Made by a program: the position numbers and the translations under genes. The notes under the pieces were generated by a model. That model was not told the origin of the DNA. It was given only the letters and a program-made list of their open reading frames with translations, and made no database searches. Below, piece after piece: positions 6,650 to 12,321 of a stretch of 64,000 nucleotides of DNA. The DNA comes from an uncultured Chloroflexia bacterium (lineage in GTDB: Bacteria > Chloroflexota > Limnocylindria > Limnocylindrales > CSP1-4): positions 352,001 to 416,000 of the forward strand of contig OY970218.1 of the NCBI GenBank assembly GCA_963713975.1. The letters run 5' to 3'. How positions within the stretch are numbered: the first letter of the stretch is position 1; each line of letters begins with the position of its first letter.

Positions 6650-7513
6650 TCAGCTATCGCCGAGCCCGGCGATGAAGCGGCGCAGCACCCTGGCGAGCCG
6701 CGGCCCCGCCTCGGCGCCTGCCTTGAGCACCTCCTCGTGGGTCAGCGGCTGCCCGCTGTAGCCGGCACCCGCGTTGGTCACCAAAGACACGCCACAAACC
6801 TCGAGACCGACCCAGCGTGCCGCAACCGCCTCGAGCACCGTCGACATGCCGACGGCATCGGCGCCCATGGCGTGCAGCATGCGGACCTCGGCCGGCGTCT
6901 CGTAGCTGGGACCCAGCAGCCCCACGTAGACCCCTTCCTCAAGGGGCACACCCTCGGCCACGCCAGCGGCCCTGAGGACTGCCCGGTGGGCAGGGGTCCA
7001 GACATCCGTCATGTCCGCGAACCGTGGTCCGAGCTCGTCCGCGTTCTGGCCAAGCAGCGGCGTCATCCCGGTCAGGTTGATGTGATCCGCGATCACCATC
7101 AGCGTCCCCGGTCCATACGCGGGATTCGCACCGCCCGCTGCGTTGGTCAGGATCACCAGGCTCGCACCCAGCTGCCGGAAGAGCAGCACCGGCTGGACGA
7201 CGAGGCCCGGGGCGTTGCCCTCGTAGAGGTGGAGCCGGCCCTGGAGCGCGGCGACCGGGACACCGGCGAGGCTACCCAGCAGCAGGCGGCCGGCGTGGCC
7301 CGGGGCGGTCGCGACTGGCCACCCGGGAAGGTCCTCGAAGGGGATCGAGACCACGTCCTCGATGTCATCGGCGAGGCTGCCCAGGCCGGAGCCGAGGACG
7401 ATGGCGACACGCGGCACGAGGTCCGTGCGCGAACGCACGGCAGCGACAAGCGCGGCCAATCGGACCGGCTGCTCGGAGGGGGGGATCGGACGGGAGCGGT
7501 CGATGTCTGCCAT
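6650..7513 (-). CDS. punA: Purine-nucleoside phosphorylase (trimeric type)
   Basis: VLGSGLG, PGHAG, QGRLHLYEG, TNAAGG, GPSYETPAE, VGMSTV. Confidence 0.93.
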   Translation of the reverse strand: MADIDRSRPIPPSEQPVRLAALVAAVRSRTDLVPRVAIVLGSGLGSLADDIEDVVSIPFEDLPGWPVATAPGHAGRLLLGSLAGVPVAALQGRLHLYEGNAPGLVVQPVLLFRQLGASLVILTNAAGGANPAYGPGTLMVIADHINLTGMTPLLGQNADELGPRFADMTDVWTPAHRAVLRAAGVAEGVPLEEGVYVGLLGPSYETPAEVRMLHAMGADAVGMSTVLEAVAARWVGLEVCGVSLVTNAGAGYSGQPLTHEEVLKAGAEAGPRLARVLRRFIAGLGDS

Positions 7514-7591
7514 GCGAGGAGGATAGGCCGGGCCGACCACGGGGTCTCGCCTGTCGTGCTGGGTGATGGCCGCGGCGGGCCTTAAACTCCG

Positions 7592-7834
7592 ACGCCCGGC
7601 AGGAGTACCGACACCGGGATGCCGGTCGCGTCCTTTCGGGCGCCCAGGCCGACGACCCTCGCGGGCTGTCTGCGCTGGTGAACGAAGTGCCCGAAGCAAC
7701 CGGAGAGCGCCGGACCTTGATGTGATCGCGGTCATGGCGCCGACCTGGCGTCGATGCGATCTCGGCCTGGCCGGGTGGAACGGGCTTGAGGCAATCGCCC
7801 CCGTTCCGGGCCTCCTATCGGCCCCCTCGGGCAC
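7592..7834 (-). ncRNA. Putative ~245-nt structured non-coding RNA of unknown class
   Basis: 5' and 3' ends pair over about 17 bp with G-U pairs; nested 8-9 bp stems; GAAA, GCGA and UUCG tetraloops on the minus strand; promoter directly upstream. Confidence 0.65.
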
Positions 7835-7839
7835 GACCA

Positions 7840-7868
7840 ACGTTACGACCCGACCGCGCCCAGTCCAA
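7840..7868 (-). promoter_or_regulatory. Sigma70-type promoter of the putative ncRNA
   Basis: -35 TTGGAC (7863-7868), 17-nt spacer, -10 TAACGT (7840-7845). Confidence 0.6.
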
Positions 7869-8028
7869 CGGGGTTGTCCACGAACCACCGGCCGGCGGAG
7901 CCGGCTCCGTCCACGACTTTGCCACCGCTGTGGATGGCCTGTGGACGGCAGGCATGGGCCTGCGGGCATACCCGCAACGCTGCGCAAGCGCCCCACGCCA
8001 ACGCTGCACCAGCGCCGCCAGCGAACGA

Positions 8029-9126
8029 TCAGCCACCGAGGGCGAACATCTCCACCTTCGGGAGCCGTTCCGTCGCCGCGCTGCGCAGCTCCGAGTAGCG
8101 GTCAGTCCGGGCGCCCCACGAGGCCCGGATCCGGGCCTCGAGGTCCGAGTCGGTCTCCCCGTTCCGCAGCGGGGCCTTGAGGTCCGTGCCGTCGACGGCG
8201 AACAGGCACGTGTAGAGGTGCCCGTCCGCGGACAGTCGCGCCCGCGTGCAATCACCGCAGAACGGCTTCGTGACCGACGCGATGACGCCGATCTCGCCGG
8301 ACCCGTCGCGGTACCGGTAGCGACCCGCAACCTCGCCCCGGTAGTTGGCGGCGACGGGCTCGAGCGGCAGCTCCCCGTCGACGATGCCGAGGATCTCGTC
8401 CGCCGGCACGACATCGTCAAGGCGCCAGCCGTTCGCAGTCCCGACGTCCATGTACTCGATGAACCGCAGGATCAGCCCCTCGTCGCGAGCCCAGCGGGCG
8501 AGCGGCAGCACCGAATCCTCGTTGATCCCGCGCCGCACGACGGTATTGACCTTGATCGGCGCGAGGCCGGCGGCCCGCGCGGCCGCGATCCCGTCCAGGA
8601 CCCGGGAGACCGGGAACTCCACGCCGTTCAGCGCACCGGACACGGCATCGTCGAGCGAGTCGAGGCTCACCGTGATGCGCGTAAGGCCGGCCTCGCGCAG
8701 CGGCCCCGCGAGCGGTCGCAACGCCGAGCCGTTGGTGGTCAGGGTGAGGTCGACCGCATCACCGGCCGGCGTCCGCAGCCGCGCCAGCTGGCCGACCAGG
8801 AGCGGCAGGTCTCGGCGCAGCAGCGGCTCGCCGCCGGTGATCCGCAGCTTGCCCACCCCGAGGGTCAAGAAGATCGAGGCCAGCCGGCTGATCTCCTCGA
8901 AGGACAGGACCTGGTCGTGGGGCAGGAAGGCGAAGTCACGCCCGAACAGCTCCGCCGGCATGCAGTACGGGCAGCGGAAGTTGCAGCGGTCCGTGACCGA
9001 GATCCGCAGGTCACGGAGGGCCCTGCTGAACCGGTCCGGCAGGCCGGTCGGCTCGTCGAATGCGCCGGTGGCCCCCGGCGCGGCACCCACCTTCGGGGAC
9101 GGATCAGGATTGGTGTCAGGATTCAC
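8029..9126 (-). CDS. moaA: GTP 3',8-cyclase (Moco biosynthesis radical SAM)
   Basis: LRISVTDRCNFRCPYC, TGGEPLLR, FCGDCTRARL..LYTCLF, C-terminal GG. Confidence 0.96.
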   Translation of the reverse strand: MNPDTNPDPSPKVGAAPGATGAFDEPTGLPDRFSRALRDLRISVTDRCNFRCPYCMPAELFGRDFAFLPHDQVLSFEEISRLASIFLTLGVGKLRITGGEPLLRRDLPLLVGQLARLRTPAGDAVDLTLTTNGSALRPLAGPLREAGLTRITVSLDSLDDAVSGALNGVEFPVSRVLDGIAAARAAGLAPIKVNTVVRRGINEDSVLPLARWARDEGLILRFIEYMDVGTANGWRLDDVVPADEILGIVDGELPLEPVAANYRGEVAGRYRYRDGSGEIGVIASVTKPFCGDCTRARLSADGHLYTCLFAVDGTDLKAPLRNGETDSDLEARIRASWGARTDRYSELRSAATERLPKVEMFALGG

Positions 9127-9359
9127 CCGCCTATGGTAGACCGGGTCGGCGAGCGGGCCCGCGGCCGGCGGGCTCGCGGCGGGCCGGGTCGCGGACGCGG
9201 GCCAAGTCGATCCGACCAGATCACAAATGAGTGGTGCGCCCCGGTACCACCGGGACCACTGGCTGGTACCTCTAGCGAGTGCACCGGAGCCCACTCGGCC
9301 GCCTATGGTGCACGCAGGCCCCGGCCCTGCCTGCCGCTCACGAGGAAGAGAACCCGACC

Positions 9360-11084
9360 ATGGCGACCACCGACACGCGCTCCGGTTTCCGGCTCCCCTG
9401 GAGCTCCGATCGCGCCATCGATGCCGACGAGCATGCGCCTTCCGATGTCGCAGCCGAGACCGACGACGATGCGCCTTCCGATTCGGCCGCGTCAGAAGGC
9501 AGCGACCCCAATGCCAGCGCCGAGCCCGGCGCCCAGCCCCCCGAACCCGCCGCCGCGGGGCCGACCGGACCCCAGGAGCCCGCCATGATCGATCTGTATC
9601 CCACGGCCCCCCAGGTCCAGCAGGCGCCGAGAAAGCCATCCAAGCTCATGGCCGAGCTGACGACGGCGATCCGGGGCACCGCGGAAGCGGCCAGCGAGCA
9701 CGCCCTGACCCAGGTGGACACGGACCTCGCCCAGGTGGTCGAGACGATCCGGAACCTCGCCAAGGACGGCGAGGCCTCGCTGCGCGTCCGGTCTGACGAG
9801 GACACCGCCGCGATCAAGGAGTGGTCGCGCCTGGAGATCCAGCGGATCAAGCAGGAGACGGAGGCGAAGATCGACGCCCGCAAGGCGGCCCTCGACGGTG
9901 AGCTCGCGGCCCATGCGACTGCCATCGAGCAGCGTGTCGGCGATGTCAGCATCTCGGCCGATGCCTTCAGGTCGGAGATGGCCGCCTACGCTGAGCGCAT
10001 GGGGCAGGAGGAGGATCCCTCCCGTCTGGCCACCATGGCCGAGTCGATGCCCGAGGCCCCCCAGCTGGATGCCTGGGCGGATTTCGATGCCTTCCCGCTC
10101 GACCTCCCCGCCGCCGCGCTCGCCGTGGCGGCACAGACGGAGCGAGAGGCCGCTCTCGAGGCCGAGGCCCAGGCGGCGCTGCAGGCGGAGGCCGATGCGG
10201 CCCTGCAGGCGGAGGCCGATGCGGCCCTGCGCGCGGAGGCCAACGCGGCGTGGCAGGCACAGGCCGACGCGGCCGCGGACGAGGACGGCGCCGAGGAGCC
10301 GGAAACGGAAGCCGACTCGCAGGCCCGCGCCGACATGATGCTGGAGCCCGACCATACGGCTGAGGCGGTGACCGTGGACCAGGTCGAGGTCGAGGCCGAG
10401 CCAATCGTGGCCGAGGTCGAGGTCGAGGCCGAGCCAATCGTGGCCGAGGTCGAGGTCGAGGCCGAGCCAATCGTGGCCGAGGTCGAGGCCCAGGCCGAGC
10501 CAATCGTGGCCGAGGTCGAGGCCAGCCCCCCGCAGGCCACGAGGACCACGAACCCGTGGGGCGACGCGGAATCCGGCTGGGGCAGCGGCGCCACCAAGGC
10601 TGTTGCCAGCGCCATTCCCGCGTCAGATGACGCAGCCCGGGCCGCAGAAGCCCAGGCGGAGCTCGAGACAGGCCTCCTGGAGGCAGACGACAGCGTTGAG
10701 CCCGAGGCCGATGCCGCGCTGTCGGCCCGGCTGAGCGCCATGGGGTTCGATGCTGCCTACGCGGACGCGACGGCCTCCCTCGCGCTGGACGCCAACGGCG
10801 TCGCTGCAGGGACCGAGATGCTCGTGACCCAGGTCGTGGTCTCGGGGCTCGTCTCCGTCGCCAGCATCGCCAGCTTCAAGCGCCATCTCGGCCGCATCGG
10901 GGGAGTGCAGGCGGTCGCCGTTGCGTCCGGACCGAACGGAGAGTTCGTGTTCAACGTGACGCATGCGCCGAACGTCTCGTTCCGCGAGGCGCTCCCGACC
11001 CTGCCCGGGTTCGCGGCCCGGGTGACGAGCACCGGGAACGGCGTGGTCCAGGTCACTGCCCGAGATCCAGAGTCCGAGGCCTGA
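9360..11084 (+). CDS. Hypothetical coiled-coil/acidic low-complexity protein with conserved-looking C-terminal domain
   Basis: GAGGAAGAG RBS; helical Ala/Glu-rich region, tandem repeats, C-terminal beta-alpha-beta domain (VVVSGLVSVASIASFKRHL). Confidence 0.8.
   Translation: MATTDTRSGFRLPWSSDRAIDADEHAPSDVAAETDDDAPSDSAASEGSDPNASAEPGAQPPEPAAAGPTGPQEPAMIDLYPTAPQVQQAPRKPSKLMAELTTAIRGTAEAASEHALTQVDTDLAQVVETIRNLAKDGEASLRVRSDEDTAAIKEWSRLEIQRIKQETEAKIDARKAALDGELAAHATAIEQRVGDVSISADAFRSEMAAYAERMGQEEDPSRLATMAESMPEAPQLDAWADFDAFPLDLPAAALAVAAQTEREAALEAEAQAALQAEADAALQAEADAALRAEANAAWQAQADAAADEDGAEEPETEADSQARADMMLEPDHTAEAVTVDQVEVEAEPIVAEVEVEAEPIVAEVEVEAEPIVAEVEAQAEPIVAEVEASPPQATRTTNPWGDAESGWGSGATKAVASAIPASDDAARAAEAQAELETGLLEADDSVEPEADAALSARLSAMGFDAAYADATASLALDANGVAAGTEMLVTQVVVSGLVSVASIASFKRHLGRIGGVQAVAVASGPNGEFVFNVTHAPNVSFREALPTLPGFAARVTSTGNGVVQVTARDPESEA
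10175..10270 (+). repeat. In-frame 24-bp tandem repeat (ALQAEADA-like, about 4 copies)
   Basis: GCCCTGCAGGCGGAGGCCGATGCG unit with variants. Confidence 0.8.
10381..10523 (+). repeat. In-frame 33-bp tandem repeat (EVEVEAEPIVA, about 4.3 copies)
   Basis: CCAATCGTGG recurs at 10401, 10434, 10467 and 10500. Confidence 0.92.
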
Positions 11085-11088
11085 CGCC

Positions 11089-12321
11089 GTGGCCACCTTC
11101 CTCACGCGACCGGCAGTCGCCCTCCTCCTCCCGCCGGCCGAGCGCGATCCCGTTGCCAGCGAGCTCCACGCCGGCGGCTTCGATCCACTGCCGGTCGCCG
11201 ACCTTGATGCGCTCGATGCACTCGTGGCTGCTCGTTCAGACCTCGCGGTAGGGATCATCGACGCCGACGTGGAGCCGGAGGTGGCCGCGCAGGCGTGGGC
11301 AATGCTGCACGACCGCGGGCGCTCCATCCCGGCGCTGCTCATCGTCAACCCGTCCAACATGGACGCGCTGGACCTGGACGGGCCCGGCCACGAGGATGAC
11401 GAGTACCTGACGCGGCCCTACTCCGCGGAGGCGATCCGCTGGCGGGTTGAGGCGATCTGCATCCGCTCCATGGCCGTGGACGACGGCTCCGGGCCCGTGC
11501 TCCAGGGCACCTTCGACCCTGGCGAATGGAGCCGGCCCGGGCAGTTCATCAGCGTCTTCAACCCCAAGGGCGGCGTCGGCAAGACGATGCTGGCAACGAA
11601 CCTCGCGGCCACGCTTGTCGCCAAGGGACAGCGCGTCCTCCTGCTCGACGGGGACACTGTGACCGGCCATGTCAACATCTCGCTGGGCATGGATGCGGTC
11701 CCCACCGTCGTCGACGCCTGGCGCGACGAGCTGGAGGGCGGACCCTCGGTGTCGTTCCTCGAGCTCGCCTCGGCCCACTCGACGGGGCTCCGGATTCTGC
11801 CCCTGTCGGCGAGCCCCATCCATACCGAGCTGCTGGACCCCGAACGCGTCGCCACAGCTGTCGCCGTCGCGCGCCGTGCGGTCGACTTCGTGATCGCCGA
11901 TCTCCATCCGTCCTATAGCCCCCTTAACCGCGCGCTAATCGACAAGGCGGACCGGATCCTGGTGCCCGTCACGCCGGACCTGCCCGCGATCCGTGCCGTC
12001 GTCAAGCTCCGTGACGTCGCCGACGAGCTGGGCATGCGCGATCGCCTGACGCTGATCGTCAACCGGGCCGGAACCGGGGTTCCGGTCGAGGACATCGAGA
12101 AGGCGATCGGGGTCCCGTGCTACGCCGAGATCCGCTCCGCGGGCCTGATCGTCGTCAAGGCGGGCAACGAGGGCCGCACGCTCGTGGAGATCGCTCCGAG
12201 GGACGCGATCACGCGCGACTTCGACATCCTGGCCGATCGCCTGCTGGGCCGAACCACGGCGCAGCCCGCCAAGGCCGGCCTCGGCATCTTCGGGCGGCTG
12301 CAGCAGGCGGCGCGGGCCTGA
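11089..12321 (+). CDS. MinD/ParA/CpaE-family ATPase with N-terminal atypical receiver domain
   Basis: Deviant Walker A PKGGVGKT; receiver-like IIDAD...EYLTRPYS; C-terminal amphipathic GLGIFGRL. Confidence 0.88.
   Translation: MATFLTRPAVALLLPPAERDPVASELHAGGFDPLPVADLDALDALVAARSDLAVGIIDADVEPEVAAQAWAMLHDRGRSIPALLIVNPSNMDALDLDGPGHEDDEYLTRPYSAEAIRWRVEAICIRSMAVDDGSGPVLQGTFDPGEWSRPGQFISVFNPKGGVGKTMLATNLAATLVAKGQRVLLLDGDTVTGHVNISLGMDAVPTVVDAWRDELEGGPSVSFLELASAHSTGLRILPLSASPIHTELLDPERVATAVAVARRAVDFVIADLHPSYSPLNRALIDKADRILVPVTPDLPAIRAVVKLRDVADELGMRDRLTLIVNRAGTGVPVEDIEKAIGVPCYAEIRSAGLIVVKAGNEGRTLVEIAPRDAITRDFDILADRLLGRTTAQPAKAGLGIFGRLQQAARA

Follow-up and report, generated by a model that had tools for sequence, protein, structure and literature searches.

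A gene for a folded small RNA (sRNA) was delimited on the minus strand, from position 7832 to 7584, of a 64,000-nt stretch of contig OY970218.1 (assembly GCA_963713975.1, positions 352,001 to 416,000) from an uncultured bacterium of the class Limnocylindria, phylum Chloroflexota. The whole stretch is referred to below as the window. The gene is real and conserved, lies between moaA and punA, and encodes a two-domain RNA, the 5' end of which is clamped on the middle of the molecule. Within an undescribed, multi-copy sRNA family restricted to the class, it is the largest member; the members have a box-promoter unit and a clamp in common and differ in payload. The RNA is very probably the product of an independent sRNA gene. 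As to its function, it was tentatively read as an abundant, very stable protein decoy or scaffold of a soil Chloroflexota lineage, transcribed under DnaA control (rough probability 0.45). An unannotated, independent structured RNA with its own promoter had been proposed at this place by an earlier model-made note on the letters alone (hereafter, the sequence-only reading), and that proposal was supported.

The gene and its promoter elements were placed as follows.

7584..7832, minus strand: sRNA of ~247-249 nt, with its predicted 5' end at 7832 and its 3' end near 7586-7584
7868-7863, minus strand: -35 hexamer TTGGAC; TTGG almost invariant in the genus, TTGAC in other genera
7845-7840, minus strand: -10 hexamer TAACGT (TAnnGT); T, A, G and T invariant in 20/20 genus sequences

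The spacer between the hexamers measures 17 nt and the G at 7832 sits 8 nt past the -10 hexamer on the minus strand. Both hexamers had been picked out by the sequence-only reading; they were found exactly there and are conserved in the genus. Across genus and family, the -35 (TTGGA or TTGAC) and the -10 (TAnnnT) are likewise retained. A simple consensus scan, too strict for this high-G+C host, detected neither promoter nor terminator, and the promoter was called from its conservation.

Following a search with positions 7515-8030, a conserved island was recovered in 22/24 same-genus genomes at 72-82% identity. It corresponds to window positions 7947-7579 (query 84-452), neither flank being conserved, and extends ~120 nt farther upstream than the feature first proposed because it includes the conserved promoter region. 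In the 20-sequence genus alignment, conservation of the transcribed part runs from 7832 to GUUUAA (~7583) and ends there abruptly, 70 nt ahead of punA; the original size estimate of ~245 nt was thus about right (7832 to ~7584). The same query found the island in 0/16 genomes of the sister family of the order, genomes of which are ~1.1 Mb in size.

In the wider family, 111/137 genomes matched by BLAST and 35/44 by covariance model; scores of at least 72 bits were obtained in 30 genomes, every one of them within the family. A 20-letter pattern taken from the invariant hairpin was run against species-representative genomes and gave at least 119 loci. Among the 80 titled loci, 74 belonged to Chloroflexi, Chloroflexota, Chloroflexia, Anaerolineaceae or Candidatus Limnocylindria/Limnocylindrales metagenome-assembled genomes, and six bore other labels, one of them Pseudonocardiaceae. 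With 74/80 records titled Chloroflexota, Chloroflexia or Limnocylindria, an actinobacterial host was rejected, and the window was placed in Limnocylindria from the titles of relatives. The class Limnocylindria as sampled here comprises five families (f1 to f5), and the class-wide tallies (BLAST, covariance model and pattern) each take in up to three unpublished genomes, none of which contributed sequence.

Folded with its exact ends, the RNA reached -131.2 kcal/mol (z = -3.25) and 1/200 shuffles folded as well. The looser ends first proposed gave z = -2.19, and a 190-nt relative gave z = -4.10 (0/200 shuffles as good). On these values and the conservation of the island, the feature exceeds chance. 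The elements of the minimum free energy (MFE) fold are the following.

7689..7832, minus strand: domain 1; P1 clamp enclosing three hairpin modules (MFE fold)
7777..7807, minus strand: module 1 hairpin; stem 7807-7800/7784-7777, loop with GCGAUUGCCUCAAG, 2-3 stem pairs covarying
7740..7774, minus strand: module 2 hairpin; loop with GAGAUCGCAUCGAC (MFE fold, genus alignment)
7708..7739, minus strand: module 3 hairpin; loop with GCGAUCACAUCAAG, module retained in all relatives
7586..7688, minus strand: domain 2; P2 enclosing P3 and P4 (MFE fold)
7592..7643, minus strand: P4, a long, near-invariant 25-bp hairpin with a CCCG loop (...GACGYGAYCGGCAU-CCCG-GUGUCGRUACU...)

Through 13 bp formed between 7832-7819 and 7702-7689, the P1 clamp brings the 5' end onto nt 131-144 of the RNA. 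Three of its pairs underwent compensatory change among the 20 genus sequences, including a G:C pair that became A:U in 8/20 and a C:G pair that became U:A in 4/20 (C·A in four others); compensatory changes in P1 were also seen when families were compared. Stem pairs of module 3 covary in 6-9/20 sequences, and GAU...AUCAA is invariant in 63/63 single-module relatives. In domain 2, P2 pairs 7688-7683 with 7591-7586 and is followed by UUU; among single-module relatives it covaries between G:C, U:A and A:U (15 and 11 cells). P3 (7678-7644) is variable, carries a GCGA loop and covaries at every pair in the same relatives. P4 is invariant in the genus, and a 32-nt stretch of it is 100% identical in another genus; Y:R covariation was found in 25/76 sequences, the apex being otherwise invariant. 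Outside coding sequence, the P4 apex has no further copy in the genome; one that lies inside a coding region (..GFEGGIPVSLDGE..) was discarded as a chance match.

Over the genus alignment (20 sequences), 89.9% of cells pair, as against 35-44% when partners were slid, and 22/90 pairs show compensatory change, as against 3-9. A covariance model was then built from 63 single-module relatives and used to align 89 matches, of which 76 were distinct. In these, 92.0% of cells pair (36-48% slid) and 34/70 pairs are compensatory (11-17 slid), values reached by 0/500 shuffles, in an alignment fitted to the model and with a structure taken from one member's MFE fold, both of which bias it toward structure.

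All strings that the sequence-only reading had paired are present and complementary, and part of its fold was retained. The helix GGAACGGG/CCCGUUCC is the stem of module 1 and has three pairs with compensatory changes. The proposed 17-pair helix closing the 5' end on the 3' end has no place in the fold: 0/17 of its pairs are compensatory and five are broken in 5-12/20 sequences. The helix CCAGGCCGA/UCGGCCUGG, which pairs in just 57.8% of cells over the 20 genus sequences, was not confirmed. Covariation thus speaks for the two-domain fold and against the closing helix. As for the tetraloops named as hairpin caps, GCGA does form a hairpin loop, whereas GAAA falls within an internal loop of P4 and UUCG within the 3' strand of P1.

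The hairpin enclosed by P1 (GAGAUCACAUCAA) occurs in three copies in the RNA of the window, and the loop conserved among modules reads G(A/C)GAUYRCMUCAA. Among 73 titled loci with a placeable 5' end, the motif was counted once in 52, twice in three, three times in 15 and five times in two; the one locus with zero motifs (1/73) had a mis-set start. Three modules, in an RNA of ~248 nt, are found in the genus of the window, and one module, in an RNA of ~190 nt, in most genera of the family. Only one further genomic copy of the module's 11-mer GATCACATCAA exists, in sense orientation inside punA (7077-7087, minus strand, codons ..ADHINL..), 640 nt downstream of the RNA; this is probably coincidence.

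Four loci in the genome of the window combine the box, the -35, the -10 and the start GCCCGARGGGG, at 359.8 kb (the present RNA), 1770.4, 2498.9 and 3040.2 kb. The other three, each with box, promoter, GCCCGAAGGGG clamp and U-rich tail, are listed here.

Genome 1770439-1770496, minus strand: family member of ~75 nt
Genome 2498948-2499005, minus strand: family member of ~180 nt
Genome 3040179-3040237, plus strand: family member of ~118 nt

All three fold as clamps of 12-14 bp followed by U-rich (GUUUCG-like) tails. Their interiors are unrelated, save for one module in the 75-nt member. The clamp begins at the predicted first transcribed base, GCCCGARGGGG being paired to CCUUCGGGC over 12-14 bp (13 bp in the present RNA). 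In the present RNA the stretch after the clamp, ACUUCGUU, supplies the 5' strand of P2, and UUU past P2 forms the 3' terminus. Using the pattern GGAYAA-N25-38-TANNNT-N4-11-CCCGARRGGG, the family was found in 78/151 class genomes, every one of which has between 1 and 4 copies; the reversed pattern, used as a control, gave 0. By taxonomic family, the pattern was present in 34/44 (f1), 43/50 (f4), 0/6 (f2), 0/49 (f3) and 0/1 (f5) genomes. In a sample of the phylum, 18/23 Limnocylindria genomes had it versus 1/178 other Chloroflexota genomes (control, one match); that single match outside the class is an AT-rich chance match and was rejected.

Weak matches of the covariance model, scoring 30-39 bits, came from families f3 and f4 and from another genus of the family, and proved to be domain-1 homologues. 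All 12 that were fetched have the same box-promoter unit, the clamp, one module and the U-rich tail, without domain 2. Neither moaA nor punA occurs within 2 kb of these homologues (0/12 loci), and no common neighbour gene was found for them across families. Since domain 1 thus occurs elsewhere away from punA, the RNA was taken to be an independent sRNA gene. At two f3 loci, further GTGGA boxes come after a domain-1 homologue, together with a second promoter and a second start of the clamp, an arrangement suggestive of the sRNA gene in tandem.

Upstream of the -35 hexamer, four DnaA-box-like sites were recognized.

7939..7947, minus strand: site 1 (CGTCCACAG); TCCAC core invariant in 20/20, TTATCCACA or GTCCACA in relatives
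7928..7936, minus strand: site 2 (CATCCACAG); direct repeat of site 1, 11 nt on, conserved in genus and family
7906..7914, minus strand: site 3, inverted (CGTGGACGG); GTGGA invariant in the genus alignment
7874..7882, minus strand: site 4, inverted (CGTGGACAA); GTGGA.AA invariant in the genus, 5 nt upstream of the -35

The place of site 4 beside the -35 is retained in every family member seen. In other genera, the upstream sites read TTATCCACA, GTCCACA and CGTGGATAA, which we take to be the DnaA-box consensus of E. coli and Streptomyces. The locus is among just seven places in the genome with at least four [GA]TCCAC sites per 100 bp. The 530-bp spacer between dnaA and dnaN holds five boxes, including GCGTGGACAACC as at the present promoter, beside an AT-rich stretch. 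Judged from these likenesses, the boxes have about an even chance of being bound by DnaA. A replication origin at the locus was considered and rejected, because dnaA (1.072 Mb) and the GC-skew minimum (1.079 Mb) lie ~715 kb away.

Similar sites were noted at three other places in the genome. Two near-perfect DnaA boxes (TATCCACAA and TGTGGACAA) are located at 3364737-3364790, directly upstream of a parA/soj-like gene (..VIAIANQKGGVGKTT..). Positions 238768-238990, far from dnaA, carry five DnaA-box-like sites in 110 bp, then an unusually AT-rich stretch, and may be a DnaA titration/reactivation site or another regulated promoter. Finally, at 1140300-1140580 (minus strand), the same box-promoter unit (CGTGGACAAG, TTGACG, TACCGT) drives a different GC-rich, structured-looking transcript without the GCCCGARGGGG start.

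RNA from relatives is present in RNA libraries. Ten metatranscriptome runs (four studies) contained a small share of the sampled words of the stretch, from which no habitat is deduced, and the contigs of four runs were aligned; the tables of two of these four were almost the same, so that both may belong to a single data set. The contigs, from soil and sediment, measured 58-271 nt, were 80-95% like the window, and hence came from relatives, and reached a depth of up to ~240. They are confined to 7582-7815, with none on 7400-7567 or 7832-8100, and several span the boundary between domains 1 and 2. The bare flanks are not evidence of silence, because the flanks of relatives are unconserved and would not align. 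One contig carries at least 24 A directly past ...UGAAGU, the end of P2, a hint that the 3' end lies there.

The reading as a decoy or scaffold would run as follows. Transcription would start ~8 nt past a sigma-70-type promoter, the -35 of which abuts one DnaA-box-like site with three more within 80 bp. DnaA would bind these boxes and set the level of the RNA, tying it to replication and the cell-cycle state. P1 would serve both as terminator and as stabilising end-clamp, the U-rich tail following it in small members, and domain 2 would be a family-specific extension in which P2 re-uses the old tail. Recognition sites would be provided by the invariant loops and the apex of P4. The RNA would act in trans, its invariant loops being repeated binding sites for a partner that is most likely a protein, and its decoy or scaffold capacity would scale with the number of modules. 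That one loop is repeated, at a copy number that depends on the lineage, would fit a decoy or scaffold better than a pairing seed. In a bolder form, which is speculative and distinctly unlikely, the family would be a DnaA-wired RNA regulon: promoters of end-clamped sRNAs would be gated by the replication initiator, initiation state would be broadcast post-transcriptionally, and the GAUCACAUCAA hairpins, variable in copy number, would titrate a factor that binds DNA or RNA and might be DnaA itself, feeding back on initiation. The GAUCACAUCAA hairpin motif is one base off the TATCCACA core of the box.

Several points weigh against the decoy or scaffold reading under DnaA control. The whole analysis was computational and used sequences only, and DnaA binding is proposed from likeness of the boxes, only the fourth of which is within one mismatch of the DnaA-box consensus. 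The library evidence consists of contigs of relatives, not reads, so that strand, level and 5' end are outside its reach. P1 is invariant among the 76 single-module relatives, its support coming from the genus alignment and the between-family comparison. The candidate partner genes CsrA, Hfq and Ro60/TROVE were not found in the genome. Within the family, furthermore, the RNA precedes punA by 60-110 nt in the same orientation (29/30 loci), and domain 2 was found at the punA locus only.

These last two points would be explained if the RNA, or at least domain 2 (P2-P4), stood in the 5' untranslated region of punA and acted as a cis leader, that is, an attenuator or riboswitch controlling read-through or translation. 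The genes concerned are the following.

8029..9060 (start approximate), minus strand: moaA, upstream neighbour; Pfam Radical_SAM and Mob_synth_C, stop at 8029
6650..7513, minus strand: punA (purine nucleoside phosphorylase), downstream neighbour; Pfam PNP_UDP_1, E = 7e-47, ATG at 7513-7511
7520..7525, minus strand: leaderless-type -10 of punA, TATCCT, 6 nt before the ATG and outside the RNA

The order moaA-RNA-punA on one strand is retained in the family, with punA downstream at 29/30 and moaA upstream at 28/30 loci; both this order and the short gap of ~35-110 nt between RNA and punA favour a leader. Outside the genus of the window, punA has a GGAGG Shine-Dalgarno sequence. In several genera it is part of CUGGAGGCCCG, to which GCGGGCCUC, directly 3' of the RNA, is able to pair; this pairing may act as a terminator or as a hairpin controlling translation. 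Because of it, a cis role for domain 2 is conceivable in those genera. A leader, at least as regards domain 2, is nonetheless quite improbable. Conservation stops abruptly at GUUUAA, well before punA, and poly(A) follows P2 directly on the contig of a relative. In the genus of the window, punA has its own -10 at 24/25 loci, a hexamer similar to TATCCT (that sequence itself, TATGCT or TAGACT) that precedes the ATG by 6-7 nt (20 flagged by script and four seen in the printout at an earlier in-frame ATG), as expected from the leaderless promoter that the sequence-only reading had assigned to it. Away from this locus, domain-1 homologues do without punA (0/12). The variable number of modules and the nucleotide-invariant stems are atypical of riboswitches, no Rfam riboswitch matching either.

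A base-pairing regulatory sRNA, in which target mRNAs would be met by seeds in the invariant loops (GAUCACAUCAA and the P4 apex, CCCG) and clamp and tail would provide only stability, agrees with the conservation of single-stranded loops, as in many seed regions, and with a common scaffold carrying different payloads, as expected if each member addresses different targets; that the known decoy partners CsrA and Ro60 were not found points the same way. We nevertheless regard it as rather unlikely. Exact 11-nt complements of the loop occur in the genome only at the RNA gene itself and at the coding site inside punA, so that no targets emerged. The Hfq gene was not found either, an identical seed repeated 3-5 times would be unusual for a pairing sRNA, and a large part of what is invariant lies in the double strands of P1 and P4. 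As a functional analogue of 6S or Ms1 RNA, the RNA would bind RNA polymerase and replace a 6S RNA undetected in the class. The Rfam 6S model indeed matched 35/151 Chloroflexota genomes versus 0/16 Limnocylindria genomes (that of the window included), and the common form of ~190 nt is, like 6S RNA, apparently abundant. Yet this is very improbable: the 6S model gave no match with E as high as 10, pairing of the 5' end with the 3' end is lacking, there is no central bubble, members of the multi-copy family range from 75 to 250 nt, and host range and synteny differ from those of Ms1.

Hardly credible, lastly, is a sequence without RNA function, be it a selfish or structural repeat (MITE-like, bounded by inverted repeats) or an extension of PunA at its N-terminus. 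As might be expected of a MITE, each genome has several loci with the clamp, an inverted repeat of 13 bp, but orthologues are syntenic across the whole family, helices covary and copies in the same genome are wholly different inside the clamp, for which reasons a MITE was excluded. The extension would be encoded by a 448-aa open reading frame (ORF; 6650-7996, minus strand) that spans the RNA gene in frame with punA, and an automatic gene caller could read a long PunA there. Pfam gave no match for the extension, indels interrupt the frame in relatives, and it was rejected as an artefact of 71% G+C; ORFs overlapping the RNA likewise matched no Pfam family. Frame-breaking indels of a single nucleotide occur inside the RNA among genus sequences, and whole modules are inserted in relatives, so that a coding reading is excluded.

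The decoy or scaffold reading aside, the locus provides a well-delimited RNA supported by covariation, with a defined promoter, a modular build of evolving copy number and paralogues with a regulatory unit in common. Limnocylindria (formerly Ellin6529) abound in soil and fresh water but have hardly been cultured; to our knowledge, essentially nothing is known of their RNA biology. In the literature available to the search, none of six conserved strings of the RNA was found, nor was a paper pairing Limnocylindria with a small RNA.

Comparison with known RNAs was carried out using Rfam 15. No family matched at gathering score in the whole window. With E up to 10 on 7400-8100, mir-1203, the GRIK4 3' UTR and Twister-sister scored 15-20 bits and were rejected as chance matches. 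Of the two identities offered by the sequence-only reading, a new class or a 6S/Ms1-like RNA, the former is therefore the better, because no Rfam family matches; the latter found neither a match to the 6S model nor a rod fold in its favour. SRP RNA, RNase P RNA and tmRNA, which that reading had already set aside, are excluded because their genes lie elsewhere in the genome.

With 6S RNA (RF00013), the present RNA shares its apparent abundance, its highly structured and stand-alone character, a length of ~190-250 nt and a sigma-70-type promoter of its own. It differs by the lack of a model match (the entire genome gave none with E up to 1), of a closing stem and of a central bubble, and by its several copies with variable payloads. 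It is of the same size class as Ms1, and a gene for a CpaE/ParA-like ATPase (11089-12321, 3.3 kb from the RNA) and acs lie within 6 kb. In the portions of the sources available, Ms1 is an RNA of Actinobacteria (PMC4191392), its hosts being particular actinobacterial orders (Table 4 in PMC9130861), and is flanked by a gene for an HAD-IB hydrolase/phosphoserine phosphatase (or CpaE) and, on the other side, an oxidoreductase, glycosidase or Fic gene (PMC9130861). These descriptions set Ms1 apart from the present RNA, which has a Chloroflexota host, moaA and punA as flanking genes and no rod fold. The likeness to the Ms1 neighbourhood (Ssd/CpaE, acs), which the sequence-only reading had allowed might be coincidence, is coincidence, since the host belongs to the Chloroflexota. 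High G+C and Ms1-like neighbours had suggested an actinobacterial Ms1/6S RNA; that reading is wrong, and an easy mistake is hereby corrected. The ~2 kb between moaA and the ATPase gene (9060-11089) contain long ORFs on both strands, such as 9279-11084 (plus, 601 aa) and 9986-10741 (minus); ORFs tested at 9227-11360 gave no Pfam match, HAD included.

Like Y RNAs and YrlA, domain 1 (in small members, the whole RNA) is clamped 5' to 3' around a variable payload and has several paralogues per genome. Unlike them, it has neither a tRNA-like domain nor an Rfam match, and the Ro60/Rsr (TROVE, Pfam PF05731) gene was not found in the single-contig genome, in a search in which the Deinococcus control matched. 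As in the CsrB/RsmZ sponges, a conserved hairpin motif is repeated at a lineage-dependent copy number (1, 2, 3 or 5), but the loop is GAUCACAUCAA (GAUYRCMUCAA) instead of GGA, and a search of the genome for the CsrA gene found none. A search of the genome for Hfq (PF17209) gave no match. The usual partners of CsrB-type, Hfq-dependent and Y RNAs are therefore missing.

The raiA-motif RNA and the like are orphan structured RNAs obtained from comparative genomics. The present RNA resembles them in being defined by conservation and covariation alone, and differs in its restriction to one Chloroflexota class, its modular design and a promoter tied to DnaA-box-like sites.

In the parts of the literature on DnaA boxes and small RNAs that were available, DnaA-regulated protein genes and the CtrA-dependent CcnA RNA of Caulobacter were described, and no DnaA-controlled sRNA family. 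If the boxes bind DnaA, the present genes would form a small-RNA family under control of the replication initiator, a link of which no description was found. DnaA-regulated promoters and box clusters include those of dnaA and nrd, datA and DARS in E. coli, and clusters in B. subtilis. With these, the present promoters share 3-5 DnaA-box-like sites in ~110 bp, one of them abutting the -35; the product here, in contrast, is a small-RNA family and not a protein gene.

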